A stretch of 32,000 bases of DNA from Methanothermobacter marburgensis str. Marburg (GCF_000145295.1 NC_014408.1:1020001-1052000), one strand, 5' to 3'. Counted from the stretch's first letter, positions 3,587-30,942 are shown. Numbers and translations are program-made. The notes: generated from the letters alone by a model not told the origin.

Positions 3587-3865
3587 TCAATGATATAGCC
3601 GAGAAAGGAGAAGTACACCTACTAGGAGCATTATAACAAAAAGTGTTTCGATCACACCTTTTTCCTCGCCTCTGAACACCTTCTTCGACAGAAAATAGAT
3701 TAGCAAAAACATATTTCCCAGTAAAAGACACGTTAACAATATAATAGGTAGTTCAGGCCTAGTAGGCAGTAAAGCCAACCTACTACCCGTAAACAGTAAA
3801 ACCAACAAAATTGTAAAACACGATAACGACCCCAAAAAATAAAAAAGCTTAGATGTATGCTGCAT
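3587..3865 (-). CDS. Small 3-TM membrane protein, type-2 partner (immunity-like) of orphan cassette 3849..4256
   Basis: 92-aa ORF. Its ATG overlaps the last codons of the cassette and is preceded by GAGGTG with a 5-nt spacer. It shares NMFLLIY.L.K...E......G with 4387..4629. Confidence 0.6.
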   Translation of the reverse strand: MQHTSKLFYFLGSLSCFTILLVLLFTGSRLALLPTRPELPIILLTCLLLGNMFLLIYFLSKKVFRGEEKGVIETLFVIMLLVGVLLLSRLYH

Positions 3866-4256
3866 CCTCCCACCTCAAACTACCATCAGGATTCTTCGGT
3901 ATTTCAATATAGTGTATACAATGATCCTCACCAACATAACTTCTCAACTCATAACCATAAATCCAGGTACGATGAATCGAAATATACTTCCAATATTCTT
4001 GGGGAAGATAATGAGTCCGTATCCTTAAAATCAAATCACCTTCAGCCACTATCACACTTATAAAACCCAAAGGACCCATAACAGCAGTGACACCGGCAAC
4101 AGTTGCAATATCTAATATACCATGGAAAACATCCTCTAGAATGCATGTTTGGTGTTCTATGATGAATTTTTTGATATCGTCTGTGATGTTTAGGAGGCCT
4201 GTGTAGGCTATTATTGTTGCATATGCTGCCATGTTGAGTCCTATAAATCCCTCCAC
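3849..4256 (-). CDS. Orphan C-terminal cassette D (5'-truncated copy of the 837-aa gene tail; variable window type 2); possibly a silent cassette
   Basis: 135 aa from GTG 4256, with no SD. 4141..4244 is the constant 5' block, 4011..4139 the variable window and 3852..4010 the constant tail. 3843..4013 matches 5513..5683 with 1 mismatch. Confidence 0.55.
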   Translation of the reverse strand: MEGFIGLNMAAYATIIAYTGLLNITDDIKKFIIEHQTCILEDVFHGILDIATVAGVTAVMGPLGFISVIVAEGDLILRIRTHYLPQEYWKYISIHRTWIYGYELRSYVGEDHCIHYIEIPKNPDGSLRWEDAAYI

Positions 4257-4386
4257 AAGAGCATAATTGAGGATATCCTGGAATGTAAATCCACATAGAC
4301 TTCAACATTATCATGAGTTGTGATATTTTTTATAGGTTTTTTCTAAGATTTTCCAGTTTTTTTGGGCGTGGGGGGCTGCTTTTCTT

Positions 4387-4629
4387 TTATGCAAGGCCAA
4401 AGAAGCCTATAATTACAAGCAAGCCTCCAAGTGCTCTGACAGTTTCATTTTCAGTTTTTCCCAACTCATCCTTGCCTAATAGGTAAATTAAGAGAAACAT
4501 GTTCACTATGTAAATGGAATAGACAATTAATTTGCTGATAATATAGGGGAAACGGAGACTAACCACAACCAATGCAGCAGTAAAATAAGAAAGGAAATAA
4601 CTAAAATAAAAAATGTACTTTACCATCAT
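4387..4629 (-). CDS. Small 3-TM membrane protein, type-2 partner (immunity-like) of orphan cassette 4643..5146
   Basis: 80-aa ORF. AGGAGG lies 5 nt before the ATGATG start, which is 13 nt after the cassette stop. It is a paralogue of 3587..3865. Confidence 0.65.
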   Translation of the reverse strand: MMVKYIFYFSYFLSYFTAALVVVSLRFPYIISKLIVYSIYIVNMFLLIYLLGKDELGKTENETVRALGGLLVIIGFFGLA

Positions 4630-4642
4630 ATCATCCTCCTAA

Positions 4643-5146
4643 TCAGATATACACTGCTTCATCCCATCTTAAAGTACCATCTGGGTTCTTTGGGATTTCA
4701 ATGTAGTGTATGCAATGGTCTTCGCCAACATAAATTTTAAGTTCATAACCATGCCGCCAAGTTCTATGGTAAGAAACATATTTCCAATATTCAGTTGGAA
4801 GATAATTCGTTCTTACATTCACAATTAAATCACCTTCTGCTAATAGTAGAGAAGCAATCGAAAAAATACCACTTGCCAAGGTGACACCTTCACTACTAAG
4901 CTCTTTTAAACTCCATATAAAAAGAATCCCATCTATAATGTCCCCTCCAATGCATGTTTGGTGTTCTATGATGAATTTTTTGATATCGTCTGTGATGTTT
5001 AGGAGGCCTGTGTAGGCTATTATTGTTGCATATGCTGCCATGTTGAGTCCTATGAGGCTGGCCCTACATAATCGAAAAAGAGGGTTTAGGATGGAAAGGT
5101 ACATGGAGGTTACAAAGCCCAATATAAGCCTTCTTAGTACTATCAT
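4643..5146 (-). CDS. Orphan C-terminal cassette C (variable window type 2) with a decayed, frameshifted 5' remnant
   Basis: 167-aa ORF. The constant block is 4950..5053, the variable window 4805..4948 (48 codons) and the constant tail 4646..4804. Upstream, 5100..5180 is homologous to 5985..6065 but carries a 1-nt insertion, so the first ~10 codons are out of the ancestral frame. Confidence 0.5.
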   Translation of the reverse strand: MIVLRRLILGFVTSMYLSILNPLFRLCRASLIGLNMAAYATIIAYTGLLNITDDIKKFIIEHQTCIGGDIIDGILFIWSLKELSSEGVTLASGIFSIASLLLAEGDLIVNVRTNYLPTEYWKYVSYHRTWRHGYELKIYVGEDHCIHYIEIPKNPDGTLRWDEAVYI

Positions 5147-5161
5147 CTAAACCTTCAAGGT

Positions 5162-5407
5162 TTACAGTGCTGTTGCCATCCAGGAAAAGGACGAGCCTAC
5201 TACAAAGGTTATGGCCATTAACCATCGTATTTCATCCTCTCTTTCCTTCAATTTGAATTGGAGCCAGAATAGAAGAGAAAAAATGAACAAGCCTAAAAGG
5301 TCTGCTATTGGAATCAAACCATTAAAATGTTTAATTCCAATGGAAAATAAAATAATATCGAGACAAAGAAGGGAATAAAGTATATCGAGCAAAGATTCAT
5401 AATCCAA
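5162..5407 (-). CDS. Small 3-TM membrane protein, type-1 partner (immunity-like)
   Basis: 81-aa ORF with a TTG start preceded by GGAGGTG (7-nt spacer). It shares LDYES and L(K/E)E(K/R)E.EIRW.M....VG with 8512..8787. Its last ~7 codons run into a remnant of cassette sequence. Confidence 0.6.
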   Translation of the reverse strand: MDYESLLDILYSLLCLDIILFSIGIKHFNGLIPIADLLGLFIFSLLFWLQFKLKEREDEIRWLMAITFVVGSSFSWMATAL

Positions 5408-5519
5408 GAAAAGACACCTCCTATATCATCCACTTAGACTACCCCATTAGGGTTCGTTTGAGAATTTTAGCCCCATATAGTTGCCGCGGATCGTAAAATA
5501 CGCCAAAAACTGAAAAAGC

Positions 5520-6167
5520 TTAGATGTATACTGCATCCTCCCACCTCAAACTACCATCAGGATTCTTCGGTATTTCAATATAGTGTATACAATGATCCTC
5601 ACCAACATAACTTCTCAACTCATAACCATAAATCCAGGTACGATGAATCGAAATATACTTCCAATATTCTTGGGGAAGATAATGATCTCTAAATGTAAGT
5701 ATGCCATCACCTATCCGCATACACCATCCAATTGGTTGAAATATTTCACCACCATACCTTACTAACACATATGCCAAAACCTGGATCAAACAGTGAGCAG
5801 TATCTTCTGAGATGTATGTTTGGTGTTCTATGATGAATTTTTTGATATCGTCTGTGATGTTTAGGAGGCCTGTGTAGGCTATTATTGTTGCATATGCTGC
5901 CATGTTGAGTCCTATAAATCCCTCCACAAGAGCATAATTGAGGATATCAACAAAAGCCATCGGACCTTCCAGGGCAATGTACATGGAGATTACAAGGCCA
6001 ATATAAGCCTTCTTAATACTATCATCTAAACCTTCAAGGTTTACTGTGCCATTACCATCCAAGAGCGAATCTAACTTTTCAGAGAATATTATAGTCTGGC
6101 CAAGTTCCCGAGCCCATTCTGTCTGTTGGTGGTAGTAGCAGTATGCTCCCATGAAAGCATAGATCAT
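5520..6167 (-). CDS. Orphan C-terminal cassette B (variable window type 1); the reading frame and homology continue upstream to 6300 without a start codon
   Basis: 215 aa from ATG 6167. The constant block is 5812..5915, the variable window 5682..5810 and the tail 5523..5681. The whole 5520..6300 stretch aligns to 8768..9551. Confidence 0.55.
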   Translation of the reverse strand: MIYAFMGAYCYYHQQTEWARELGQTIIFSEKLDSLLDGNGTVNLEGLDDSIKKAYIGLVISMYIALEGPMAFVDILNYALVEGFIGLNMAAYATIIAYTGLLNITDDIKKFIIEHQTYISEDTAHCLIQVLAYVLVRYGGEIFQPIGWCMRIGDGILTFRDHYLPQEYWKYISIHRTWIYGYELRSYVGEDHCIHYIEIPKNPDGSLRWEDAVYI

Positions 6168-6300
6168 GTCCCTTACTATCCCTGTTACATGGTCTATGAT
6201 GAGGTATCTTCCCTGCCCGTCACTGATAAGCGTGTAATTCTCGCTTTCGAGGATGTTTAGTGACCCGCCGTTGAGGAGTGTTAGGCCTATTCCTGTTGTG
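5520..6300 (-). repeat. 781-bp duplicate of the 3' end of the 837-aa gene (partner copy 8768..9551)
   Basis: Read by eye, 5916..6300 is almost identical to 9164..9551. The copies diverge in the variable window and homology ends abruptly at 6300/9551. Confidence 0.9.
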
Positions 6301-6327
6301 TGGAGGTTTTGATCCTGGGATTTGGGT

Positions 6328-7548
6328 TTATGGTTGATTTTTTTGGATGGTGAGTTCTTTCAGGGCTTTTTTGGCTTTTTTGTATTCTGGGTCTATTTTC
6401 AGGGATTTTTCGTAGCATTTTAGTGCTTCTTTGTGTTTGCCGAGTTTTTGTAGTGTTTTTCCTTGCATGTACCATAGTGTTTTGTTTTGCGGGTTTAGTT
6501 TGAGGGCTTTCTTGTAGCATTTCAGGGATTCCTCTGGTTCTTTGAGGTCTTCTAGGATTATGCCTTTCCATTTCCATGCATCAGCGAATTCTGGGTTTAT
6601 TTCAAGGGCTTTTTGAAAGCATTCCAGCGCATCCTCATATTTTCCAAGTTCTTCGAGGACTAGTCCTTTGTTGTTCCATGTTTTGTCGTCTTCTGGATCT
6701 ATTTCCAGGGCTTTTTCATAGCATTCCAGTGCCTCCTCATATCTCCCAAGTTCACTGAGGACTACTCCTTTATTGTTCCATGCTTCTGCAAGTTTGGGGT
6801 TTATCTGTAATGCTTTTTCATAGCATTCTAGTGACTCATCATATCTCCCAAGTTCATTGAAAACTAGTCCTTTGTTGTTCCAAGCTTTATCATCTTGTGG
6901 ATTTAATTGGAGAACTTTGTCATAACATTTTAATGCTTCTTCATATATCTTAAGGTTATGTAATGTTATTCCTTTAGTTCCCCAAGCTCTATAATTTTTT
7001 GGATTTAGCTCTATGGCTTTTTCGAAACATTTTAGTGCCTTTTTGTATTTTTTAAGGTAAATTAGAACGGAGCCTTTATTGTACCATGCATCTGCAAGTT
7101 TGGGGTTTATCTGTAATGCTTTTTCATAGCATTCTAGTGCCTCATCATATCTCCCAAGTTCTTTGAGGACTAGTGCTTTATTGTTCCATGCTCCTGCATA
7201 CTTTGGATTTATTTTTAGTGCTTTTTCATAGCATTCTAGTGCCTCATCATATCTCCCAAGTTCTTTGAGGACTAGTCCTTTGTTGTTCCATGCTTCTGCA
7301 AGTTTTGGATTGTTTTTGAGGATTTTTTCATAGCATTCTAAGGCTTTCTCTGGTCTTTTGAGTTTTAGTAGTGTTATTGCATTGTAGTGGAGGATTTCTG
7401 GGTTGTTTGGTCTTGCTTTGAGGGCTTTCCTGAATTCTTTGAGGGCTTCTTTGTATTTTCCCTGTTTTAGGCTTGATCGGCCCCCAGCAAGGTGCCATCC
7501 AGCCTTTCCCTCGGCTATCCAATCCTTTATTTTCTTAAGGGGGTTCAT
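6328..7548 (-). CDS. Tetratricopeptide (TPR) repeat protein, ~11 tandem 34-aa repeats; translationally coupled partner of orphan cassette E
   Basis: The repeated consensus is A(W)xNKGxxLxxLGRYDEALECYEKALxINP. Adjacent 102-bp DNA units are nearly identical (for example 7118..7190 vs 7220..7292). Its ATG overlaps the stop of 7545..8495 (ATGA). Confidence 0.85.
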   Translation of the reverse strand: MNPLKKIKDWIAEGKAGWHLAGGRSSLKQGKYKEALKEFRKALKARPNNPEILHYNAITLLKLKRPEKALECYEKILKNNPKLAEAWNNKGLVLKELGRYDEALECYEKALKINPKYAGAWNNKALVLKELGRYDEALECYEKALQINPKLADAWYNKGSVLIYLKKYKKALKCFEKAIELNPKNYRAWGTKGITLHNLKIYEEALKCYDKVLQLNPQDDKAWNNKGLVFNELGRYDESLECYEKALQINPKLAEAWNNKGVVLSELGRYEEALECYEKALEIDPEDDKTWNNKGLVLEELGKYEDALECFQKALEINPEFADAWKWKGIILEDLKEPEESLKCYKKALKLNPQNKTLWYMQGKTLQKLGKHKEALKCYEKSLKIDPEYKKAKKALKELTIQKNQP

Positions 7549-8495
7549 CCTCCAGCCTCTCTCAACTTCTTTTCTAGGTAGTTTTTGAATCCTAGTATGC
7601 AGGCTTCTATTGCTTCACGATTCTCATAGGCCAATAGGCTTCCAATAGCCATCCCAGTGCCTATTATAGTGCCTCCATGTTTTATGGCGCCCACAACATC
7701 CCCATCCTTTAAAGCCTCCTTGAACAGATCCCATTCATCCATCATGAGTTTACCTAAATTATTTATAGCCCTTCCTATATCGTCGGGATCGCCACCAACA
7801 CCACCACTGCTAATCACCCTTAGAGTATCTACGGCTTCTCTATACTCATTTATCGCTTGACTCCATTCGTCAGACTGTCTTGATAGTATTTCAAGATAGT
7901 TTTGTATTGGTTGTGTGTCTCCTGTTAGTAGTGTGTAGGCGATGAATGTTGGCAGACCAGCGGGTGAGAGTAACATCATGGCATCTTCGATGTATGGGAG
8001 CCACTCAGGATGTTCGATGAGGATATAAGCGACTATTGCAACAACTATTCCTATGCCAGCTGTCGCCGGCGCTGACAAGGCTCCTGCTTCGAGGATGGCG
8101 ACTTCAGCTCCTCCTTCGAAGCCGACGACTTCAGCTCCTGAAACACCAGCAAATCCAATGAACTTCCACAAACCGGTCTCATTCAGTAGTTCTTTTGCGA
8201 GGTTGGCTGCCCATTCTGTCTGCAGGTGGCTGAAACAATATGCCCCCATAACATTCTTAAAGATATTGACATCCCTCACTATCCCTGTTGCAGTGTCGAT
8301 GATCAGGTAGTCATTATCATAGTTTATTATGGTGTAGTTCCCAGCTTTTGTAATATTTAGTTTTTCTCCGTTCAGGAGCCTGTATGCTATGCTTGTGATC
8401 GCAGCACCTTCCATGATATCCCCTATATTGTCGAGGCTTCCATTGTATGGGAATAGGCGTTGCATTGAACTCTGAGGGGTTTGATGTCCCGACAA
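7545..8495 (-). CDS. Orphan cassette E: junction motif homologous to the 837-aa protein, followed by an unrelated glycine-zipper-rich hydrophobic C-terminal domain
   Basis: 316-aa ORF (TTG 8495, or ATG 8465; no SD). Residues ~36-96 (8208..8390) align to 9362..9541 of the full-length gene: LLNG..LNI...NYT.I....YLIID..TGIVRD....MGAYC..H.QTEWA. Downstream it is unrelated to the other cassettes (GFAGVSGAEVVGFEGGAEV..., GGTIIGTGMAIGSLLA). Confidence 0.55.
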   Translation of the reverse strand: MSGHQTPQSSMQRLFPYNGSLDNIGDIMEGAAITSIAYRLLNGEKLNITKAGNYTIINYDNDYLIIDTATGIVRDVNIFKNVMGAYCFSHLQTEWAANLAKELLNETGLWKFIGFAGVSGAEVVGFEGGAEVAILEAGALSAPATAGIGIVVAIVAYILIEHPEWLPYIEDAMMLLSPAGLPTFIAYTLLTGDTQPIQNYLEILSRQSDEWSQAINEYREAVDTLRVISSGGVGGDPDDIGRAINNLGKLMMDEWDLFKEALKDGDVVGAIKHGGTIIGTGMAIGSLLAYENREAIEACILGFKNYLEKKLREAGG

Positions 8496-8511
8496 TAATT
8501 AAATAGCCCTG

Positions 8512-8787
8512 TTATACCCCTGGAGATGCAATTAAACCCACTATAAGGAGCATTACCATCATCCATCTTATTTCATACTCTTTTTCCTTCAACTCGTAGT
8601 AGAGCCAGCATAAAAGGAGAAGAGTGAACAAGCCTAAAGGGGCTGCTATTAGGGACAAAACATCACAATGATACTTAAGCGCAAGAATACATAGGAACAT
8701 AACTATGCAGATAAGAGGATAAGCCCTCTTATACCAAGATTCATAATCCAATAAGATCCCCTCCACTTTAGATATATACTGCTTCAT
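8512..8787 (-). CDS. Small 3-TM membrane protein, type-1 partner (immunity-like) of the full-length 837-aa protein
   Basis: 91-aa ORF from an ATG inside the upstream gene. A more likely start is TTG 8751, preceded by GGAGGGG (6-nt spacer), which matches the start context of paralogue 5162..5407. Confidence 0.6.
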   Translation of the reverse strand: MKQYISKVEGILLDYESWYKRAYPLICIVMFLCILALKYHCDVLSLIAAPLGLFTLLLLCWLYYELKEKEYEIRWMMVMLLIVGLIASPGV

Positions 8788-9551
8788 CCCACCTCAAACT
8801 ACCATCAGGATTCTTCGGTATTTCAATATAGTGTATACAATGATCCTCACCAACATAACATCTCAACTCATAACCATCGTACCAGGAACGATGATACGAT
8901 ATATACTTCCAATACTCTTTTGGAAGATAATAATCTCTAAAGCTCAATATTTTATCACCAAACCACATACAAAACCCAATTGACCCTAATATCGCCCCAG
9001 CACCTCCTTTTGACACGTATCCAAAAACAGTAAGTAAAATATCTATAATGTCTTTTGGAATGTATGTTTGATGTTCTATGATAAATTCTTTGATATCGTC
9101 TGTGATGTTTAGGAGGCCTGTGTAGGCTATTATTGTTGCATATGCTGCCATGTTGAGTCCTATAAGTCCCTGACCCACAAGAGCATAATTGAGGATATCA
9201 ACGAAAGCCATTGGACCTTCCAGGGCAATGTACATGGAGATTACAAGGCCAATATAGGCCTTCTTGATACTATCATCTAAACCTTCAAGGTTTACTGTGC
9301 CATTACCATCCAAGAGCGAATCTAACTTTTCAGAGAATATTATGGCTTGGCCAAGTTCCCGGGCCCATTCTGTCTGTTGGTGGTAGTAGCAGTATGCTCC
9401 CATGAAAGCATAGATCATGTCCCTTACTATCCCTGTTACATGGTCTATGATGAGGTATCTTCCCTGCCCGTCACTGATAAGCGTGTAATTCTCGCTTTCG
9501 AGGATGTTTAGTGACCCGCCGTTGAGGAGTGTTAGGCCTATTCCTGTTGTG
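8768..9551 (-). repeat. 784-bp master copy of the segment duplicated at 5520..6300
   Basis: See the entry for 5520..6300. The two copies differ in length by one codon. Confidence 0.9.
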
Positions 9552-11316: not shown

Positions 11317-11332
11317 GAAAAATATAAAAGGT
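11317..11332 (-). promoter_or_regulatory. TATA-box-like element upstream of the 837-aa gene
   Basis: The minus strand reads ccTTTTATATTTTTc, centred ~43 nt upstream of ATG 11281. This is pattern resemblance to archaeal TATA boxes only. Confidence 0.3.
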
Positions 11333-30378: not shown

Positions 30379-30855
30379 TTGAAGATTATAACCAGAAAGG
30401 AGAACATGGTCTACAGGGAAATAAGGTACATGCAGCTTGATCTCAACGCCCCTGTATCAGAGGAGATGCTTAAGAGGAACCTTGACCTCCCTGAACACGA
30501 GTATCATGACATAGTAGTAAGCCTTGAGAAAAAGGGACTCATATCAAGAAAAAACGGGAGGATAACTGCCGGGAACCCTGGTGAAGATGTGAAGGTAATG
30601 GAAAATCAGGACGAAGTCAGGGAAGCTGAGCTGAACCAGATAGAGGAGGAAACCCTGAGGACCATTAAGGAACTCGGAGGCGGAGGACCGGTTCCCCGTT
30701 ACCTCCTTGAGGGCCACCTTCTCTATGGTCCCCTCAGGCTCAGCACAAGGCGCATGTACAACGTACTCCTTTCACTTGAAAATAAAAAGCTCATAGAGAT
30801 GGTGGTGCTGGATCAAGGTGAATATTACCGCCCCTCAGCCCCCCATGATTCCTGA
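30379..30855 (+). CDS. Hypothetical protein with two winged-helix-like segments
   Basis: 158 aa from TTG 30379, with GGAGGT 6 nt upstream. An alternative ATG at 30406 is preceded by AGGAG. The segments HDIVVSLEKKGLISRKNGRI and MYNVLLSLENKKLIEMVVL look wHTH-like. Confidence 0.5.
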   Translation: MKIITRKENMVYREIRYMQLDLNAPVSEEMLKRNLDLPEHEYHDIVVSLEKKGLISRKNGRITAGNPGEDVKVMENQDEVREAELNQIEEETLRTIKELGGGGPVPRYLLEGHLLYGPLRLSTRRMYNVLLSLENKKLIEMVVLDQGEYYRPSAPHDS

Positions 30856-30942
30856 ACACCTTCTGAACCATCATTTTCTCTGCAGATCTAAACCATGATT
30901 CCTGAACACCTTCTGAACCATCATTTTCTCTGCAGATCTAAA
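30843..30942. repeat. 50-bp tandem repeat, 2 copies, spanning a convergent intergenic spacer and both flanking stop regions
   Basis: 30843..30892 and 30893..30942 are identical or nearly so. Copy 1 contains the TGA of 30379..30855 and copy 2 contains the pheS stop. Confidence 0.95.

Follow-up and report, generated by a model that had tools for sequence, protein, structure and literature searches.

How can a protein segment of about 45 codons diverge deeply between the copies of a gene when the DNA on either side of it remains nearly identical? The question is raised by a stretch of 32,000 nt from Methanothermobacter marburgensis str. Marburg (NC_014408.1:1020001-1052000; contained in record CP069376.1), numbered here from its first letter (position 1), in which a full-length gene, A, is accompanied by the orphan copies E, B, C and D. 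The array reads, from A downstream, A(a) ImmA E TPR B(b) ImmB C(c) ImmC D(d) ImmD, with lower-case letters for the variable windows, and open reading frame (ORF) calling and alignment placed every cassette feature in coding sequence of the minus strand. The explanation favoured here, and probably the right one, is that the locus is a polymorphic C-terminal cassette system, made of one expressed pseudomurein-anchored surface protein, 5'-truncated copies that recombine, and what would be a specificity hairpin with its partner proteins. In the following, “window” always designates the variable segment of a copy and “the stretch” the whole 32,000 nt.

Divergence inside and outside the variable window

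The A-, B-, C- and D-type 3' end consists of a helical hairpin of ~45 codons, hypervariable, lying between a conserved 5' tract and a 53-codon tail (Table 1). An initial annotation, made from the sequence alone, had singled out a 75-nt string in the tract, which was recovered at exactly 4170, 4979, 5841 and 9089, on this strand only, with the four-way identity stopping at both borders; such four-fold identity is beyond chance. The divergent stretch that the annotation had placed between two conserved tracts was equally found, bounded by the EHQ codons on one side and the YLP codons on the other; it measures 150 nt in C and 135 nt in A, B and D, rather than the ~130-145 nt first estimated. Regarding the tails of D and B, the single-base difference (170/171) and the extension ~8 nt past the stop were reproduced, the partner segment being 5514..5684 instead of 5513..5683, and on the 5' side B equals D over a further 132 nt (4146..4277 = 5817..5948). 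The segment 5520..6300 (781 nt) does duplicate 8768..9551 (784 nt), but the two are less alike than “near-identical” had implied: only 703 positions are identical, 90% overall, with B matching A at 344/352 positions upstream, 128/132 in the tract, 84/135 in the window and 147/162 in the tail.

The comparison of synonymous divergence inside and outside the window, which had been proposed as a check, was made with Nei-Gojobori counts of synonymous (pS) and nonsynonymous (pN) differences, window values being taken from equal-length pairs. The 5' tract gave pS 0-0.13 and pN 0-0.025 over all pairs, against pS 0.51-0.73 and pN 0.34-0.55 in the window. Given this difference, the identity of the tract is not due to protein constraint, and the tract is instead homogenised at the DNA level. 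In the B/D pair, the flanks comprise ~51 synonymous sites and differ at 0 of them, while the adjoining window has pS 0.73. The tail is less strictly conserved in A and C, as the annotation had stated: C differs from the other copies with pS 0.74 and pN 0.10-0.13 (pN/pS ~0.15), A from B or D with pS 0.17 and pN ~0.08, and B from D with pS 0 and pN 0.008. These values indicate that the tail is a selected protein module, as seen in C, which has also been recently converted between some copies (B = D). Among close alleles, where the counts are small, dN/dS was ~1.5 for the window and ~0.45 for the tail.

Such pattern shows that the copies recombine via the 5' tract and the tail, the tract being thereby kept near-identical at synonymous sites, and that this recombination yields mosaics within a genome. 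An example is copy B, which in one finished genome joins A-like upstream sequence (97.7%) to a window of its own and a D-identical tail, the similarity of B and D being lost ~17 nt past the stop. Moreover, the four Marburg tracts are identical to each other, whereas both copies in the MT-2 lineage share seven other substitutions, which reads as a signature of concerted evolution.

Other candidate explanations of the repeated DNA were tried and rejected. A diversity-generating retroelement, with template and variable repeats differing at adenines only, does not fit window differences that hit all four bases and lengths of 135 versus 150 nt. The tract gave no RNA-structure signal (z = -0.56), so it was not retained as an RNA structure, and conversion initiated by a G-quadruplex (G4) was dismissed because no G4 motif (G3+N1-7 x4) occurs on either strand of the whole 32 kb.

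Cassette rearrangements among related strains

Methanothermobacter genomes with the locus were found by exact-sequence look-up, their sequences being retrieved via ImmC and E; an initial family search had given 11 matches, and the look-up then placed the locus in many Methanothermobacter genomes. Three finished genomes (Marburg, THM-2 and KEPCO-1) share the chromosomal site, with an Nre-domain gene on one side and MsrB plus GMP synthase on the other, and differ by exactly the rearrangements expected from the cassette exchange that the initial annotation had put forward. That proposal is thus upheld both by the low pS of the tract relative to the window and by the rearranged arrays in syntenic finished genomes. 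The THM-2 array, A(a) ImmA E TPR B(b) ImmD-like, is that of Marburg without the part that extends from ImmB through window d. The KEPCO-1 array begins with A(c) and ImmC, continues with a module made of D-upstream sequence, window d and a hybrid tail, and ends with ImmA E TPR B(b) ImmD-like. Its expressed full-length gene carries the window c that is an orphan in Marburg, together with its tail and ImmC, and the hybrid d/a tail runs on into ImmA.

The KEPCO-1 junctions (J1-J3) were placed by three-way alignments. J1 comes after the last base diagnostic of A, ahead of the 75-nt tract, and before the first one diagnostic of C, directly past the tract, that is, within or at the edge of the core 9089-9163; J2 falls inside the tail block YVGEDHCIHYIEIPKNPDG (also given as VGEDHCIHYIEIPK), with d-type sequence before and a-type after; and J3 is 9-17 nt past the B stop. 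J1 and J2 mean that an orphan window has come to lie in the expressed gene of a sister strain, with crossovers in the conserved blocks that had been flagged. The simplest history would be that window a of a THM-2-like array was replaced by the C-D block of a Marburg-like array, with tract and tail as the arms. The initial annotation had also contrasted the locus with classical polymorphic toxins, in which everything 3' of the junction varies. The conserved tail after the window agrees with this contrast, but the exchange at the KEPCO-1 expressed site moved 1.2 kb and took the partner gene along, like ordinary orphan swapping.

Further arrangements were found in other genomes. DeltaH-type genomes have two tandem arrays and two full-length genes, one with window X and a 138-aa transmembrane (TM) protein and the other with window a and ImmA; they also contain a frameshifted f-type cassette and a module that combines C-upstream sequence with window d, as seen in M. 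thermautotrophicus DeltaH (AE000666, L022 2961-19264). MT-2 and four independent assemblies of its lineage hold a b-type window between D-type flanks. In a JGI contig (L003), the flanks match those of Marburg B at 98-100% identity, 440 nt with ImmB among them, and the ~230 nt corresponding to the window and two thirds of the tail present 27% mismatches (Fisher p = 2e-40). The 5' junction of window X to B-type sequence shares only 11 nt with the other known context of X, which is too short for a k-mer (de Bruijn) assembly chimera and rules one out. These comparisons show that, between strains, windows move with or without the partner gene between positions, the expressed gene included, and that strains differ in the window that this gene carries; they support cassette exchange on an evolutionary timescale. 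At intact full-length genes the only pairings are a with ImmA, X with the 138-aa TM protein and c with ImmC, scrambled adjacencies occurring at orphans only. ImmA follows window a in Marburg, THM-2 and DeltaH-type genomes, and ImmC follows window c in all genomes examined.

Two sets of metagenomic contigs call for separate treatment. The b/d swaps in metaSPAdes contigs L008 and L011 (d between B flanks, b between D flanks, windows 100% identical to those of Marburg) were not used as evidence, because the junction repeats are longer than the k-mer, the contigs end at repeats and each assembly has one tract-window-tail copy; in every finished genome having both positions, B carries b and D carries d. 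In a 2x-coverage contig (L002, 10001-14566), an 865-nt unit (C-upstream, tract, window X, tail, ImmB) is repeated identically in tandem at least five times, most likely because the assembler looped through the conserved tract and not for any biological reason.

The carrier protein, its putative partners and its relatives

Gene A begins with MCYHIMVVAVRRLLFFLAILSFFCFLGSSSA, which reads as a signal-peptide-like N-terminus, and Pfam assigns to it three pseudomurein-binding repeats (PMBR, 5e-27) and a PKD domain (1.5e-12). After PKD comes an unannotated region of ~380 aa ending in ..TGIVRD..CYYHQQTEWA, and then the ~190-aa helical C-terminal region. A TATA-like TTTATAT lies at 11328, 47 nt upstream of A; the scan for archaeal TATA-like motifs gave one site upstream of A, one upstream of D and no others, which bears weakly on orphan expression. 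Orphan E retains the pre-junction motif common to A, ..TGIVRD..MGAYCFSHLQTEWA (shown also as ..TGIVRD..MGAYC..HLQTEWA), followed by a Gly-rich, hydrophobic C-terminal domain unrelated to that of A. The upstream homology left in the other orphans amounts to ~640 nt in B, ~130 nt in C (frameshifted and deleted) and ~30 nt in D. Orphan B is encoded identically in the Marburg type-strain genome, and its protein is identical to the library relative P0003.

A small TM gene is found downstream of each A, B, C and D copy, E having instead the TPR gene. In the hydropathy scan, ImmA, ImmC and ImmD showed three strongly hydrophobic segments each and ImmB two, the C-terminal region of A being only moderately hydrophobic. 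The true start of ImmA is likely an internal TTG (LDYES..). The TPR gene, which is built of 11 head-to-tail 102-nt units with 60-75% identity, is probably the partner of E and not an unrelated insert, because the two overlap by 4 nt at the E stop and are also kept as a pair in KEPCO-1, THM-2 and DeltaH. After the B stop (5408-5519) there is a 29-codon ORF whose first ~10 codons, in our own alignment reading, resemble the ImmD N-terminus (MQYTSKLFQFL..) and would be an ImmD-like remnant; an unrelated spacer separates it from ImmB. The B tail of THM-2 and of KEPCO-1 is joined directly to a complete ImmD-like gene, and the B/ImmB adjacency in Marburg and DeltaH looks secondary.

Table 1. Features of the Marburg cassette array, with positions counted from the first letter of the 32,000-nt stretch.
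Feature	Coordinates	Strand	Basis
Gene A, full-length, 837 aa	8768..11281	-	ORF; exact match WBF09278.1 (M. marburgensis)
5' conserved tract of A, 34 codons, LIGLNMAAYATIIAYTGLLNITDDIKEFIIEHQT; 75-nt four-way core = 9089-9163	9065..9166	-	
Variable window a, 45 codons, predicted helix-turn-helix hairpin	8930..9064	-	alignment, AF2
Conserved tail of A, 53 codons + stop, YLPKEYWKY...YVGEDHCIHYIEIPKNPDGSLRWDEAVYI	8768..8929	-	alignment, AF2, tail-only relatives
ImmA, small protein, 3 hydrophobic TM-like segments, directly after A	8512..8787	-	ORF, hydropathy
Orphan E, 316 aa	7545..8495	-	ORF, repeat family D9, hydropathy
TPR protein, 406 aa, 11 x 34-aa repeats	6328..7548	-	ORF, repeats, Pfam; 4-nt overlap with E stop
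Orphan B, 5'-truncated copy of the last ~780 nt of A; called ORF 5520-6167	5520..6300	-	
Parts of orphan B	tract 5817-5918, window b 5682-5816, tail 5520-5681	-	alignment
ImmB, 81 aa, 2 hydrophobic segments above hydropathy threshold, ~112 nt after B stop	5162..5407	-	
Orphan C, upstream homology to ~5185 frameshifted and deleted	4643..5185	-	repeat family D6, alignment
Parts of orphan C	tract 4955-5056, window c 4805-4954 (50 codons), tail 4643-4804	-	alignment
ImmC, 80 aa, 3 TM-like segments, 14 nt after C stop, AGGAGG ribosome-binding site	4387..4629	-	
Orphan D, shortest upstream homology	3849..4277	-	alignment
Parts of orphan D	tract 4146-4247 (B-identical up to 4277), window d 4011-4145, tail 3849-4010	-	
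ImmD, 92 aa, 3 TM-like segments, start overlapping last codons of D	3587..3865	-	ORF, hydropathy

A profile search covering 1.84 billion representatives, in a library without organism names, found 110 relatives, many of which match only up to ..QQTEWA and then continue in unrelated, mostly Gly-rich hydrophobic C-termini; dozens of them match profile positions 1-62 only. The junction motif ..TGIVRD..C..(H/D)QQTEWA is common to A, orphan E, P0011 and P0043, the latter being the full-length orthologue of A in another strain, with an E-like C-terminal domain. Tail-only relatives comprise long proteins with beta-helix/NosD repeats (P0012, P0017) and an exported C39 peptidase with one TM helix, and the domain types suggest that the longer tail-bearing relatives belong to Methanobacteriales. 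A homologue search with the tail profile gave only 4 close matches, the genome-contig scan with the C-terminal domain no confirmed match, and phage and plasmid collections no match. Junction region, helical region and tail all have no Pfam or NCBIfam assignment, in line with the earlier view of the tail as an unrecognised ~53-aa module. AF2 modelling with 10 sequences was poor (pLDDT 48). With 28 sequences the tail was predicted confidently (pLDDT 84-97) as a short helix plus a beta-hairpin, and the window fell, with moderate confidence, on two antiparallel helices (118-135 and 140-163), the remainder being poorly predicted.

The exported Peptidase_C39 protein adjoins the first array of DeltaH-type genomes (L002 4460-6581; starts of L015, L018, L022 and L023) and ends in one TM helix and a tail-like motif, VRDKYVPRKYWKYCAYH..GRDHCIHYVEY. 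In L002 its gene is followed by membrane ORFs and by a small ORF with a double-glycine-leader-like LSTEEMQKIIGK; this neighbourhood may be a bacteriocin-like processing module linked to the system. Two other repeats occur in the stretch. At 2216-2413, just outside the array, with a 76-aa membrane ORF on one side and the 3' end of a minus-strand ORF on the other, a 66-nt unit is repeated in tandem, the first two copies being perfect (2216-2281, 2282-2347) and the third degenerate (62%; family D8), and 30843-30942 is a perfect 50-nt tandem duplication (family D10).

Possible roles of the cassettes

If the polymorphic cassette system proposed above is correct, the hairpin would determine the specificity either of a toxin that acts on membranes in a contact-dependent manner or of a protein for recognition, and the small 3-TM proteins would be its cognate immunity or partner proteins. 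The orphans could then be viewed as an archive of alternative specificities, and the tail would be kept for the needs of the protein while doubling as 3' homology arm.

Polymorphic toxin systems with orphan toxin/immunity cassettes are represented by CdiA-CT/CdiI and the Rhs orphans. Zhang et al. in 2012 and Ruhe et al. in 2020 are said to have described systems of this type, and archaeal ones were reportedly predicted by Makarova et al. in 2019. The Marburg locus resembles them in its large exported surface protein, in the sharp conserved junction (..HQQTEWA) with unrelated C-termini beyond it across paralogues and strains, in the small gene directly downstream of each C-terminus, in the array of orphan cassettes, each a C-terminus with its partner, 5'-truncated but retaining upstream homology, and in the orphan cassette found inside the expressed gene of a sister strain (KEPCO-1). 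As far as sequence can tell, the structural traits of an orphan-bearing system thus appear to be present, from exported carrier and sharp junction to the downstream small gene and cassettes that reach the main gene. Unlike those systems, the locus has no recognisable toxin domain or dedicated secretion system, having only a Sec-type signal and pseudomurein-binding repeats, and one C-terminal type varies only in the 45-codon hairpin before ending in the conserved 53-codon tail. Because this tail follows the hairpin, the cassette also possesses a 3' homology arm, and the window is exchangeable without the partner gene.

More restricted parallels can be drawn with other systems. CdiA-CT(EC93)/CdiI and others are effectors that act on membranes and are paired with small membrane proteins for immunity; the shared features are a helical C-terminal domain, hydrophobic and Gly-rich, and a ~80-aa membrane protein encoded immediately downstream, but there is no detectable sequence or fold similarity and the activity at Marburg is putative. 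In Neisseria pilE/pilS, one expressed gene is accompanied by silent 5'-truncated copies with mini-cassettes bracketed by conserved recombination substrate. The Marburg locus likewise has an expressed gene, silent truncated copies and variable mini-cassettes between conserved sequences, and differs in the lack of a G4 element and of evidence of high frequency, in its direct tandem arrangement and in having a downstream gene per silent copy. In colicins, specificity resides in short regions, such as the exosite of E-type DNases or the hydrophobic helical hairpin of pore-formers, which is read by a membrane immunity protein, and there too the divergence is confined mainly to one short part of a killing domain that is conserved elsewhere. 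However, the diverged block of colicins runs without interruption from the variable segment into the immunity gene, whereas here the conserved tail lies between the two. Foldseek gave no PDB match for the Marburg domain, colicin domains included (best E = 0.8); with pLDDT mostly 30-76 in the helical part of the model, this is weak evidence against the ten-helix globin-like bundle with a buried hydrophobic hairpin that characterises pore-forming colicins. Among archaea, the VARTIG modules of Thermococcales belong to a surface protein whose C-terminal part is made hypervariable by recombination, with a polymorphic-toxin-like organisation and function unknown (PMC8416519). The likeness lies in the archaeal surface protein with its recombination-made variable C-terminal part and in the polymorphic-toxin-like layout; VARTIG has an Ig domain instead of a helical hairpin and alpha/beta tail, and the lineage and the downstream genes also differ.

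Several points weigh against reading the locus as a specificity system. No toxin domain was detected with Pfam or NCBIfam in the A-type C-terminal domain or in ten alternative ones, no PDB sequence relative was found outside the PKD domain, and the AF2 model of the helical part, which had no fold match in the Foldseek search mentioned above, is of low confidence; the resemblance of the A-type domain to membrane-acting effectors is only compositional. Hydrophobic helices followed by the tail also occur on the exported C39 peptidase, which fits a plain membrane anchor. In orphans, windows and small genes are uncoupled (b with ImmB or ImmD-like, X' with ImmB, d with ImmA), and the same ImmA or ImmB sequence adjoins more than one window; were specificity set by the window, such uncoupling would be tolerable only for silent copies. 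The swaps in L008 and L011 may be repeat-resolution artefacts and are unusable as support. Any toxicity or immunity is putative, as are the export of the C-terminal domain and the expression of the orphans.

These points lend some weight to the view that A and its copies form an ordinary envelope family, in which helices and tail would constitute a membrane anchor or juxtamembrane module, the small TM proteins would be assembly or anchoring partners, the orphans would be decaying and recombination would be passive. Gene A, with PMBR and PKD, falls in the adhesin-like class (large, exported, Big/PKD, beta-helix or PMBR, terminal hydrophobic segment), and the terminal hydrophobic helices of Methanobacteriales adhesin-like proteins have been read as membrane-anchoring domains (PMC11532034). 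The tail motif after a TM helix in the C39 peptidase, the lack of a toxin domain or toxin-like fold among the matches and the loose window/small-gene adjacency in orphans all point the same way. Nevertheless, this view leaves unexplained the deeply diverged alleles of the hairpin (pS 0.5-0.7, pN 0.34-0.55) between near-identical flanks, the swapping of unrelated C-termini after one sharp junction among the 110 relatives and between strains, and the keeping of its own small gene by each 3' end at expressed sites. The C tail, in addition, is under strong purifying selection, unlike decaying sequence. An ordinary envelope family is for these reasons considered unlikely, though to be taken seriously.

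Even less probable is a programmed high-frequency variation of the pilE/pilS type, with silent windows copied non-reciprocally into the expressed gene within a culture and producing a mixed population. It would account for the single expressed copy, for orphans mostly devoid of a promoter-like element, for the mini-cassette between conserved arms and for the orphan window in the KEPCO-1 expression site. Very high rates are argued against by both DeltaH-type records (AE000666, CP064324), which show the same modules, and the Marburg B protein is identical in record CP069376.1 and in the str. Marburg entry; nor is there a G4 motif in the 32 kb, an RNA-structure signal in the tract or an evident recombinase in the locus, and the KEPCO-1 event involved 1.2 kb with the partner gene, not a mini-cassette. 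At the other extreme, tandem duplicates could have diverged with no recombination at all, the window evolving fast and unconstrained and the flanks being held alike by purifying selection on the protein. The C tail does behave in this manner, but the low pS of the tract, the B/D flanks free of synonymous differences beside their diverged window, the mosaic copies inside one finished genome and the rearranged arrays with junctions in conserved blocks contradict this account, which retains practically no credibility. Within the polymorphic cassette system preferred here, a more specific form can be advanced only tentatively, and we regard it as possible but rather doubtful: a system of contact-dependent inhibition or kin recognition, in which a ~45-residue hairpin, of a fold without known relative, would be read by a small membrane protein and re-assorted from silent cassettes by two-armed homologous recombination.

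In the literature that was searched, no description of the locus was found, and none linking Methanothermobacter or adhesin-like proteins to polymorphic toxins; an earlier listing of the family is possible. There is little experimental evidence for archaeal systems of intercellular conflict or self-recognition, and as of 2021 the polymorphic toxin systems predicted in archaea lacked experimental characterisation (PMC8416519). The present locus lies in well-studied laboratory methanogens (Marburg, DeltaH), and Marburg, THM-2 and KEPCO-1 constitute cultured natural variants with defined cassette rearrangements, including that of the expressed window, which makes direct competition or recognition assays possible. 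Two unannotated modules, the QTEWA junction region and the 53-aa tail, are now defined and are common to larger exported proteins that resemble those of the Methanobacteriales surface, and the two-sided homology arms around a short putative specificity segment would separate exchange of the determinant from exchange of the partner gene. Should the kin-recognition form of the proposal prove true, the logic of polymorphic toxins and the exchange of pilin-like mini-cassettes would be combined in a wall-bearing archaeon.

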